Shown one piece after another: positions 6,346 through 61,428 of a stretch of DNA of 64,000 nt (positions are counted from its first letter, which is position 1; the number at the start of each line of letters is the position of its first letter). Location: assembly GCA_964016885.1 (NCBI GenBank), contig OZ024751.1, positions 39,618,001 to 39,682,000 on the forward strand, in the 5' to 3' direction. The notes below the pieces were generated by a model. The model searched no databases, had not been told where the DNA came from, and saw only the letters and a program-made list of their open reading frames with translations. The position numbers were made by a program, and so were the translations under genes. This DNA is from Eledone cirrhosa (taxonomy: Eukaryota).

Positions 6346-6566
6346 TTACACCTTCAAGCCTAACTTTCTTCCATTTTCTGTGATAGCACTATGATGTAAA
6401 ACCCAACAAGGTATTTCAGACCTTATTGTATTGTTTCTGAAATTTAAAATAGCGTGTTCAATGTAGAACCTTCTGTCGGGTGATACAAATCTCAGTTTGC
6501 CGATCGTTTGTCCTTTGGCGTTCTTTTTCGTGTGTCTCAGTTTAGCTTTTAGGTGCATGAACTTTC
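6346..6566 (-). CDS. ITIH-like A terminal exon 14
   Basis: tttcag acceptor; GKFMHLKAK...CWVLHH...LKV-stop. Confidence 0.8.
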
Positions 6567-59600: not shown

Positions 59601-61428
59601 GATACAAAACATATGCACATGCACACATATAACTCAAAACATCCACATCCACACATACAATAACATCCATATCTACACATGCATACATACATACATACAT
59701 ACATACATACATACTTACATACATACATACTTACATACACAATCCCAAACTCTCAGAGTGGTCTACCAAAAACATTAGAATGTTGTGAAACCGGACACCA
59801 TATAAAAATACATTTTATGTTTTCAGGTCACAGACAGCCGTGGGGGACGGGCACGAGGGTAGAGACAGGGGTTGTGTGTGGGGGTGGGAGGCAATGTTTT
59901 TTTCACACATATAAGATCTTGCTCTGGTATAAAGAGCCCATGGAATCAGACTATGTACATAAACACACACCACACCACACCACAACACACCATACCTCAC
60001 AACAACACACCACACCACACACACACACCACACGACACCACACCACACCACAACACACCACAACACACCACACCACACTATACACACTACACCACACTAC
60101 ACCACACCACACCATACCACACTACACCACACTACACCACACCACACTACACACCACAGCACACCACACTACACTACACTACATTACACCACACTACACT
60201 ACACCACACCACACTACACCACACCACACAACACCACACCACACAACACCACACCACACTACACCACACTACACCACACTACACCACACTACACCACACC
60301 ATATCACACCACACTACATCACACTACACCACACCACACCACACTACACCACACCACACTACACCACACAACACCACACACACACCACAGCACACTACAC
60401 CACACCACACCACACTACACCACACTAGACCACACCACACTACACCACACTACTCCACAACACCACCACACCACATCACACCATACCCCACATAGCGCGA
60501 AACAAACACAACATACGCATATATATGTGTGTATAAACACACACACAACACATATATATATGTGTGTGTAAATGTGTATGTATGTACATACATATATAGA
60601 TAGATGTACACACACACACATATTTATTTACACACACACATATATATATATATATATATATATATATATATATATATATATATATATATATATATTTATA
60701 TATATATATATATATATATATATATATATATATATATATATATATATATATATACAATATATTGAGAAAACACACAGATACATGCGGACACACACATATA
60801 CATGAATATATCCACATCCATCCTTGAGTTAATGGTGCCAACCTTAACCGATGTTGCTCTATGAATAACTGGGACAAACCAATCCGAATGGATTAGACTG
60901 AACCAGTACCAGAGCTAAAAGTACATTATGAAGAGAGAAGAAACATTTAGATATAATTAGTAATAATAATGTATCATACCTAAACTGCTTCTAGATTCCT
61001 CGACTACGTAGTTTCGTGGCATAAACAAAAACAATACATCATAGAGTATTTTTTTCGGGGTTATAAGGGGCTTAGCTCTGTTTCTTGACCGTTGTATCAC
61101 GTGACTGTCTCCCCCTCCGCCTTTTGGGATTCTTTCTCACATCATATAGACGTGTTCTTGAGGCTAGTAAAACGAGGTATCCTCTTGATAAGTCGGCAGA
61201 CCTCGCAAAGGCTCTATATCTCTATGATGTATTGTTTTTGTTCATGCCACGAAACTACGTAGTCGAGTAATCTAGAAGCAGTTTAGGTATGATATATTTT
61301 ATTACTAATTATATCTAAATGTTTCTTCTCTCTTCATAATATATATATAATATATATATATATATATATCTGTATGTGGATGTTAAACATTACTTACGGA
61401 AAGCGAAGAGACACTTGTACAGATTCAT
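44454..61428 (-). CDS. ITIH-like gene, copy B, complete 14-exon model (about 866 aa, secreted)
   Basis: Exons (minus): 61398-61428, 60880-60914, 58625-58791, 58029-58139, 57646-57896, 56769-56914, 55867-56152, 54534-54901, 49320-49664, 49009-49099, 48220-48297, 45815-45928, 45131-45487, 44454-44674. Sum 2601 nt, all GT-AG with matching phases. Signal peptide [23 protein letters not shown] (DTSGS, LTDG), RRRY-G13, GDPHF. Exons 1-2 are less certain. Confidence 0.9.
45131..45487 (-). CDS. ITIH-like B exon 13
   Basis: Paralog of 6962-7318. Confidence 0.85.
45815..45928 (-). CDS. ITIH-like B exon 12 (GDPHF)
   Basis: [11 protein letters not shown]; ttattag/gtaagg. Confidence 0.88.
46001..47210 (+). 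mobile_element. Truncated R4/Dong-type RLE element, same insertion as 7801-9565, with an internal deletion
   Basis: Same 5' truncation point; lacks the equivalent of 8529-9090; ORF 46070-47065. Confidence 0.9.
48220..48297 (-). CDS. ITIH-like B exon 11, poly-Gly linker ([14 protein letters not shown]13)
   Basis: Strong T-rich acceptor cttttcactatag, gtaagt donor, phase 1-1; not in the ORF track. Confidence 0.8.
49009..49099 (-). CDS. ITIH-like B exon 10
   Basis: [16 protein letters not shown]. Confidence 0.88.
49320..49664 (-). CDS. ITIH-like B exon 9
   Basis: Paralog of 10794-11138. Confidence 0.9.
49710..54220 (+). mobile_element. Apparently full-length R4/Dong-clade (RT + restriction-like endonuclease) non-LTR element in (AAT)n
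   Basis: Flanked by (AAT)n; single intact ORF; absent from copy A. The 5' kilobase could include unrelated sequence. Confidence 0.9.
50754..54146 (+). CDS. RT-RLE polyprotein, 1130 aa
   Basis: [38 protein letters not shown]...C knuckle; RPDLV...VDVACP...EKINRY RLE. Confidence 0.95.
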   Translation: METRTSCDRLSPNRCPLAQQQEPDCQRNTADVGGRRRRKGARTNWTKELNRTVMQCYLKSNPKERGYRRRMHNIWNEIGLFKLDEQKLAGQARVIRTNGWISELELEELSRENGLEMAGVVCQTSEPAGNEGEEVLRAEEPPEADNDLNTEINNTWNRDTATEEMNADGLGQDSVDILNLVVDELNNDSGRPMNLRFVDRKKLKETTAKVNKVIPYLEARSLHQCNNILKATANTVRKLLGIKARGNNRQERAEPWWKKRLSGQIGEMRNDIGKLESLLNGTLKNIGTKNRLEIKYKTRSKKLNIIIEELKQRIVAKSAKIRRYENRVSQYKQNRMFDNNQKMLFGQLEGKERGTDLIPGAEQAKTFWRGIWEQDVRHNAQAGWIETVQREIGEQAQQQTDLSITVETLKGQAKKLTNWKSPGPDGVQGYWIKHLTSLHPKLTAMFNDCLVSGEVPEWLTKGTTVLIMKDRIKGNDVTNYRPITCLPVMWKLLTSIVSEEIYHHLHTNNLLPDEQKGCRKKSRGTKDQLLIDKMVMGNCRRRHTDLAMGWIDYRKAFDMVPHSWITKSLEIFRVADNIRELLGRSMGSWETELTSTGVSLGSVKIKRGIFQGDSLSPLLFVLALMPLTIMLRKVRAGYKLGRGELTINHLLFMDDLKLFGKSEKELDVLVDTVRIFSSDICMQFGIGKCGVIVMRRGRLSRSNGIQIPTGEMIKEIDSEEGYKYLGVLEADGIKNKKMKELLRTEYIRRVRSVLKSHLNSRNAISAVNSRAVSIIRYSAGILRWNVAEQKEMDRKTRKLLTIYNMFHKRSDVDRLYLRRSEGGRGLISIEDCVQMEKNNLYKYVTYSKEPMLRAVLKEGRVGQGIPKEEITSRRKSSLKGKSLHSTFFEKTEFRDPQTWNWLRRGDLKKATEGMLMAAQEQALKTKWLKHHIYKEEASPLCRICGEREETVAHIVSECKHLAQTHYKGWRHDVMGRVIHWHLCKVNNLPHSEKWYEHRPEAVMENSQVKVLWDFRIQTDKKLEHNRPDLVVVDKEKRSCLIVDVACPFDTRVQEKEREKINRYQDLKWEVKRIWNCHEVKVIPIVIGALGTISKGFQGWLKKIGPFTLFGTLQKACLLGTARTLRYVLNI
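54534..54901 (-). CDS. ITIH-like B exon 8
   Basis: Paralog of 23475-23842. Confidence 0.9.
55867..56152 (-). CDS. ITIH-like B exon 7 (VWA MIDAS)
   Basis: [10 protein letters not shown]...IDTSGSM. Confidence 0.92.
56769..56914 (-). CDS. ITIH-like B exon 6
   Basis: Paralog of 28172-28317. Confidence 0.85.
57646..57896 (-). CDS. ITIH-like B exon 5
   Basis: Paralog of 29049-29299. Confidence 0.9.
58029..58139 (-). CDS. ITIH-like B exon 4
   Basis: Paralog of 29442-29552. Confidence 0.9.
58625..58791 (-). CDS. ITIH-like B exon 3
   Basis: Paralog of 29980-30146. Confidence 0.9.
60880..60914 (-). CDS. ITIH-like B putative exon 2
   Basis: [12 protein letters not shown]; phases fit exons 1 and 3. 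Confidence 0.55.
61398..61428 (-). CDS. ITIH-like B putative exon 1 (ATG, start of signal peptide)
   Basis: ATG AAT CTG TAC AAG TGT CTC TTC GCT TTC C/gtaagt; with exon 2 it forms a hydrophobic signal ending V-Q-S. Confidence 0.55.

Follow-up and report, generated by a model that had tools for sequence, protein, structure and literature searches.

Two ITIH-like gene copies of Eledone cirrhosa, probably young tandem paralogs, with a strong excess of amino-acid differences

Invertebrate ITIHs are widespread, but their function is almost never assigned, and in the literature covered they are met only as entries in lists from proteome or genome-wide association studies (GWAS). Here we describe two ITIH-like gene copies, A and B, of the octopod Eledone cirrhosa, found in a stretch of 64,000 nucleotides (GCA_964016885.1, contig OZ024751.1, positions 39,618,001 to 39,682,000 of the forward strand), in the following called the window, which has a GC content of 38%, is rich in microsatellites and contains no N. 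Both genes lie on the minus strand, at the limits given in a first-pass annotation (Table 1), which had counted by eye about 40 replacements versus about 3 synonymous differences between them. In the 829 codons that they share, 41 amino acids are found to differ, and 3 further codons differ in a purely synonymous way. The replacements are concentrated in exons 5–7, where nonsynonymous divergence is about four times the non-coding rate, which together with other evidence supports diversifying selection on the pair.

The locus and its two genes

When tandem repeats (14,288 bases) were masked ahead of self-alignment, the window resolved into two collinear units (approximately 3327–34887 and 40773–64000) with blocks that are 92–100% alike and with a stretch of 5.4 kb found solely in the unit of B. 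The units are arranged head-to-tail, in a window without assembly gaps. Because a boundary sequence occurs near 2550, at 34824 and at 63937 in a gapless window, a real tandem duplication is favoured, most likely by unequal crossing-over at this unit-flanking sequence, and A and B would then be young tandem copies, presumably paralogs, within an octopod ITIH heavy-chain lineage. The recurrence of this sequence hints at a further unit outside the window.

It should be noted, however, that the two units could also be alleles of one gene, brought together by a false join or captured by a recent unequal crossing-over, in which case the excess would reflect allelic diversification and A would be a null allele. 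Non-coding divergence between A and B is 115 of 9053 aligned sites (1.27%, repeats masked and six secondary alignments excluded), which is within the usual heterozygosity of marine invertebrates and thus fits alleles, too, and the different retrotransposons carried in the same intron could be allelic structural variants. But the head-to-tail units without gap or N, the threefold boundary sequence and the 5.4 kb unique to the unit of B look like the ordinary product of a biological process, and in either case exons would still be found to have diverged in excess of introns. We consider alleles unlikely.

Table 1. Coordinates of the features discussed (positions within the window).
Feature	Position	Strand	Remarks
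ITIH gene copy A	6346..32224	-	12 exons (2-10, 12-14), open frame of 830 codons
ITIH gene copy B	44454..61428	-	14 exons, intact frame of 866 amino acids
A exon 5	29049..29299	-	
A exon 6	28172..28317	-	
A exon 7	27344..27629	-	final ~20 codons are part of the recombined patch
Recombined patch in A	27170..27390	-	variant exon-7 end plus ~170 bp of intron not aligning with B
Stranded B-type exon-7 end in A	27101..27168	-	1 difference from B in 68 nt; B-type intron follows
B exon 1, start codon	61398..61428	-	only sense-strand copy in the window; N-terminus aligns with Argonauta protein P0004
B exon 2 (inferred)	60880..60914	-	from frame; weak GTTTGT donor; completes hydrophobic stretch
B exon 5	57646..57896	-	versus A: 6 replacements, 8 nt differences
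B exon 6	56769..56914	-	versus A: 7 replacements, 9 nt differences, 0 synonymous
B exon 7, DTSGS MIDAS motif	55867..56152	-	versus A: 11 replacements, 0 synonymous
B exon 8, remaining vWFA domain with MIDAS T344 and D377	54534..54901	-	
B exon 11, Arg-Arg-Arg-Tyr and poly-Gly linker ahead of GDPHF	48220..48297	-	missing in A
Fold-back inversion, 49 bp	32700..32748	.	in A, in place of a ~185-bp segment holding exon 1
Inverted 88-bp exon 1 copy upstream of A	34240..34327	+	also present in the B unit (63379-63466); of no use to the gene on this strand
Tandem-unit boundary sequence	34824..35371	.	copies also at ~2550-3097 and from 63937
Two head-to-tail L1/Tx1-type retrotransposons, ~6 kb each, 98.5-100% alike	11196..23258	-	A intron 8, gene-sense
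Different non-LTR retrotransposon, open reading frame of 1141 amino acids	50721..54146	+	B intron 8

[quoted passage not shown] The Pfam domains VIT, VWA and ITI_HC_C scored above cut-off in four of the eight exon pieces scanned, exon 3 of B matching PF08487 with 35.5 bits (cut-off 26.5), exons 7 and 8 matching PF00092 and exon 13 of B matching PF06668 with 38.7 bits (cut-off 27). The MIDAS (DxSxS, T, D) is complete in both copies and, just as had been claimed, unchanged (D274, S276, S278, T344 and D377 in B numbering), and its columns are invariant among 62 homologs. GDPHF (residues 639–643) includes the putative autocleavage motif DPHF (640–643). The closest named relatives are proteins of Argonauta hians (GAB1605232.1, P0004; 62% identical to B) and Octopus sinensis (XP_029646351.1, P0003; 52%). 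The predicted structure of the Argonauta protein, which stands in for A and B (62-row alignment, predicted local distance difference test score 85.7), matches that of human HC1 (6fpy) with E = 3e-57. From the domains, the motifs and the fold of this closest relative, the encoded protein is, as modelled, an integrin-like chain. It is built of hybrid domains, a vWFA domain whose MIDAS is intact, and a linker, and its C-terminal domain is preceded by an Asp-Pro site. The chain is probably secreted, the hydrophobic stretch of B (residues 5–16) depending on the inferred exon 2.

Excess of replacements in exons 5–7

The coding sequences of A and B differ by 48 nucleotides, which partition into 44.5 nonsynonymous and 3.5 synonymous changes, and synonymous divergence (0.65%) is not raised. 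Counting gives a pN/pS of 3.5–4.6 (P = 0.002–0.012). In a pairwise codon model the maximum-likelihood omega is 5.5 overall (P = 0.0003 versus 1 in a likelihood-ratio test), 10.5 in exons 5–7 (P = 0.0009) and 2.8 outside of them, which is not significant (P = 0.12); the predicted dN/dS above 1 is thus found. As an internal control, the two copies of L1 ORF2 in the window were compared over 1196 codons, of which 10 have nonsynonymous and 19 synonymous differences.

The clustering of about 24 replacements in exons 5–7 had also been noticed beforehand, and 24 is the number counted, corresponding to 27 nonsynonymous changes and 1 synonymous change. In a scan test the best window of 227 codons holds 26 of the 41 replacements (P = 0.0002) and, after removal of the exon-7 tail, 14 of 34 fall in 100 codons (P = 0.002). 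The non-coding spectrum predicts just 6.0 nonsynonymous changes for these three exons. Exons 5 and 6 have diverged by 3.2% and 6.2%, whereas introns 5 and 6 have diverged by 0.9% and 1.4%. The unique intron DNA had been described as nearly identical, which is correct only where it can be aligned: the copies are set apart by large indels and different long interspersed nuclear elements, and intron 7 has diverged by 3.2%, the highest in a range from 0.4% to 3.2%. Intron 7 of A also contains a 1.7-kb AT/ATAC repeat expansion (24036–25757) without counterpart in B.

At the end of exon 7 the differences have a special origin. Within 12 codons there are 7 nonsynonymous and 0 synonymous differences, and the order of elements in A is the variant exon-7 end, approximately 170 bp of intron that cannot be aligned with B, an ATAC repeat, a stranded B-type exon end and the B-type intron, the B-type exon end being retained 250 bp downstream. 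This arrangement is most simply explained by the insertion of a segment that came from a third copy or allele and was joined by homology at one end, within exon 7, and without homology at the other. The intron piece of the patch has no other copy within the window, and a search for close relatives sized to exon 7 returned five matches, all of them distant (47–67%). The motifs quoted in the first-pass annotation (38 protein letters) are indeed present, but the contrast of 24 protein letters at this place is one recombined patch. Because the seven replacements would have been imported as one segment, they count as one event, although the donor would itself have carried these 7 nonsynonymous and 0 synonymous differences. 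Removal of the patch leaves an omega of 4.8 for the whole comparison (P = 0.0014) and of 8.3 for exons 5–7 (P = 0.005), and 20 nonsynonymous changes are left in these exons versus 5.7 expected (P = 0.001 even when the higher local-intron rate is used). In B, the end of the Gly-rich exon is found a second time, donor site included, at 47445–47500 (minus strand); this apparently stranded copy resembles the stranded exon-7 end of A.

Position of the changes in the protein

Only 3 of 40 changed positions, but 158 of 770 unchanged ones, fall on columns conserved to at least 80% in the 62 homologs (P = 0.04; one position was dropped for poor coverage). In exons 5–7 the corresponding numbers are 2 of 23 and 60 of 203, and by column entropy the difference has a P of 5e-5. 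At position 240 both copies depart, by separate changes, from the Lys of both relatives. The sites at which B differs from the Argonauta protein overlap with the changed sites more than expected (22 of 41 versus 14.8, P = 0.014), a comparison that is not independent.

With the domain limits taken from HC1 (PMC7170535, available text) and D274 aligned to D298, the 24 replacements of exons 5–7 are distributed over Hybrid2 (12), Hybrid1 (3) and the vWFA domain (9). The VWA module, which had been considered the focus, therefore has its share of the cluster, but 15 of the 24 changes are in the hybrid domains, and 7 of the 9 vWFA replacements belong to the recombined patch. These seven, at residues 328–339, span the helix 325–336 and the first part of the loop that leads to the MIDAS threonine; the helix consensus positions N327, A331 and I335 are unchanged within the patch. 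Helix periodicity suggests that the changed patch residues are exposed. HC1 without its vWFA domain still binds vitronectin, fibronectin and the latency-associated peptide of TGF-beta, according to the available text of PMC7170535, and for this reason it is plausible by analogy that hybrid-domain surfaces serve as binding sites, too.

The charge is altered by 18 of the 41 changes (31% expected), with a net gain of +8 in A, which, in a comparison made post hoc, is suggestive of a directional charge shift in A.

State of copy A

Copy A has lost exon 1, a fold-back inversion being found in its place, and the other copies of exon 1 in the window are antisense. Among 10 mechanical ATG-to-donor candidates for an alternative first exon in 32230–40772 none is convincing. 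The first in-frame Met of A is residue 51 and thus beyond the signal-like stretch. Also missing is the Gly-rich exon 11, which is present in the Argonauta protein and in P0006. The Asp-Pro of the putative autocleavage motif is retained in A, with Tyr replacing the His present in 85% of the homologs. From these losses and from changes in conserved motifs, copy A is probably disabled or truncated. Its open frame nevertheless has 0 stops and 0 frameshifts in 830 codons, so that loss of function would be recent, or there is an unseen first exon. Located 2 kb upstream of A and of B, the inverted exon 1 copies include an ATG and a donor site; an antisense or hairpin RNA would be possible in B.

A copy in this state raises the question whether positive selection is needed at all: A could be a neutrally drifting pseudogene, and the cluster could come from chance, a mutation hot spot and one imported patch. 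Besides the two missing exons and the late Met, this explanation is in line with the polarity of the changes (25 of the 41 could be polarised with the Argonauta protein, 19 being derived in A and 6 in B, P = 0.015), with a rate outside exons 5–7 that equals the neutral one and with the divergence of intron 7. It does not account for the rejection of an omega of 1, with or without the patch, for the low divergence of introns 5 and 6 beside exons 5 and 6, or for the avoidance of conserved columns. The intact frame of A also speaks against it, although few lesions would be expected. We consider pure neutral decay improbable.

RNA editing and GC-biased gene conversion

Two further processes can generate an apparent excess of replacements. 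One is adenosine-to-inosine RNA editing, the edited adenines being fixed as guanine by selection or written back from edited cDNA by resident retrotransposons. Sense-strand A/G differences are 2.6-fold enriched in the exons (20 of 1359 purines versus 25 of 4332 in non-coding DNA, P = 0.002), whereas C/T differences and transversions are not, so that most of the exon excess consists of A/G transitions, and A/G differences make up 19 of 45 nonsynonymous changes versus 26% expected (P = 0.014). In coleoids edited adenines are replaced by G more often, as stated in the available text of PMC7703385. However, the 20 A/G sites are evenly split as to which copy has the G, with 10 for A and 10 for B, and only 1 of them is synonymous. 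ADAR sites are depleted of a preceding G, and no such depletion is seen here (6 of 20 sites, judged by eye, versus a background of 24%). Moreover, the charge of a residue is altered most cheaply by an A/G change. Editing is very improbable as the source of the excess.

The other process is GC-biased gene conversion, which would inflate the number of nonsynonymous differences. Among the polarisable changes there are approximately 18 from weak to strong versus approximately 10 from strong to weak. Such conversion should, however, raise synonymous and flanking intron divergence at least as much, and exons 5–7 have 1 synonymous change and lie next to introns 5 and 6 with their low divergence, which makes this explanation hardly credible.

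Interpretation

With moderate confidence we favour the explanation that A and B belong to an array of genes for secreted ligand binders with a MIDAS, which evolves by birth and death under diversifying selection and with segment exchange, copy A probably being disabled or truncated. By analogy with human HC1 and ITIH4, the chain would grip its target, which may be a protease, a complement-like factor or a microbial surface, through the metal site and adjacent surfaces. A changing partner would drive the divergence: selection would favour new residues at the variable positions of exons 5–7 but leave the core and the metal-binding residues as they are. Beside the MIDAS threonine loop, one patch at the least would have come in through recombination with a third copy or allele. 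Most of the change would have fallen to copy A, which since, or meanwhile, would have been disabled or truncated by the loss of exons 1 and 11.

Diversifying selection, which the first-pass annotation had proposed, is thus supported because omega is greater than 1, exons 5–7 diverge at about four times the non-coding rate and conserved columns are avoided. What is not supported is the picture of two working paralogs that diverge by point changes in the VWA domain, since 15 of the 24 clustered changes lie elsewhere, the exon-7 patch came in as one piece and A is without its ATG exon and exon 11 and bears most of the derived changes.

Several observations weigh against selection as the cause and should be considered together. 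The locus was selected on account of its excess, which makes all P values optimistic, and the evidence base is two sequences with 48 differences. If the local mutation rate were 2.5-fold, the excess that remains in exons 5–7 after removal of the patch would no longer be significant (P = 0.09). Outside of these exons 17.5 nonsynonymous changes are seen versus 15.7 expected, which equals the neutral rate and fits a loss of constraint. Some changes derived in A also affect conserved residues (D297G, V591E, H642Y, G663C and M40V). The overlap of the changed sites with the sites at which Octopus orthologs differ is no greater than by chance (4 of 41 with 3.6 expected; 0 of 40 with 2.4 expected), an excess being absent in all three pairs compared. 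Finally, a third copy as donor of the patch is not found in the window.

A more far-reaching version of the favoured reading is that the octopod-lineage ITIH array is a diversified repertoire for recognition or protease trapping, engaged in an arms race with proteins of parasites, microbes or prey, in which MIDAS-side and hybrid patches are driven apart and swapped by recombination and some A-to-G steps were tried first by RNA editing. We regard this version as rather doubtful.

Whichever partner is involved, a pair with exons 5–7 at about four times the neutral rate and with a spared metal site names the surfaces that probably meet it, A and B are two natural variants for comparison, and the exchange of a patch has been caught with its scar still visible. 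The surprise is lessened by the fact that fast birth-and-death evolution of secreted-protein arrays is already familiar and that one copy is probably dead.

Mobile elements and repeats

The two L1/Tx1-type elements amount to a sense-oriented load of 12 kb in intron 8 of A. Both have an intact ORF2 frame of 1195 codons, but only one has a complete ORF1, that of the other being frameshifted. TAA/TTA repeats beside a TTC run edge both elements, suggesting that they target microsatellites. In intron 8 of B the element is a different non-long-terminal-repeat (non-LTR) retrotransposon, A and B having acquired different elements at the same compound microsatellite. This second family, which is also found at 7813–9424 and 46058–47065 (plus strand) with flanking TAA repeats, has a C-terminal RPD-type motif that presumably resembles that of R4/Dong elements. 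The element in intron 10 is older than the split of A and B. Just before exon 2 both copies carry a 411-bp element (32237–32647 and 60927–61338) that is flanked by TA, has terminal inverted repeats of 119 bp and is like a miniature inverted-repeat transposable element, and a degenerate retrotransposon-like remnant lies at the left end of the window (1–1130, minus strand).

Relatives and known systems

The ITIH3-like proteins of Argonauta and Octopus, which are automatic annotations, have the stated identities to B over their whole length and the same domain order, MIDAS and GDPHF, and in each annotated octopod several ITIH genes lie on one long contig. In a quick tree A and B branch with the Argonauta protein as their sister, apart from two clades that hold the Octopus proteins. 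The ITIH3 orthologs of O. sinensis (P0003) and O. bimaculoides (P0196) differ in approximately 9% of their residues, most densely in exons 7–8 and in the linker, three of the differences being in the same helix as the patch; octopod ITIHs may, as this hints, be fast-evolving in general.

Evidence on mollusc ITIHs is thin. As far as the available texts go, peptides from octopus ink were assigned to oyster ITIH entries (PMC10142993), ITIH is one table row in a study of snail haemocytes (PMC6281880) and is mentioned once in a GWAS of oyster disease (10.64898/2026.09.08.750289). In the literature covered, with most subscription papers and supplements outside its scope, there was no study of selection, expansion or young duplication in cephalopod ITIHs, nor any analysis of the function of the Argonauta and Octopus relatives.

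Human ITIH1/HC1 (6fpy) has the fold of the Argonauta relative and an intact MIDAS at an identity of approximately 32%, and the Asp-Pro motif and the C-terminal domain are common to B and ITIH1-3/5/6 (PMC11670116, available text). HC1 binds C3 via its MIDAS, and the available text of the HC1 literature describes no young, fast-diverging duplicate (PMC7170535). In human ITIH4 (PDB 9c4f) the linker is cleaved, followed by MIDAS-dependent capture of the protease (PMC7793589), and the MIDAS face contacts a virus capsid (PMC11538491), both according to the text available and both usable as a working model. The basic, Gly-rich linker of B sits where ITIH4 has its variable linker, anatomy alone being compared. 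Unlike human ITIH4, B retains DPHF and ITI_HC_C, and A is without most of the linker. To our knowledge, coupling to bikunin and hyaluronan is not to be expected in a mollusc.

Accelerated evolution of exons in duplicated genes for secreted proteins is known from snake venom phospholipases, conotoxins and immune arrays. A and B differ from these systems in that ITIH is a large multidomain protein and nothing points to a role in venom, but they share with them exons that outdiverge introns, an omega greater than 1, exchange of segments and dead copies. The signal is real and fairly strong, in a known family and with a known evolutionary pattern.

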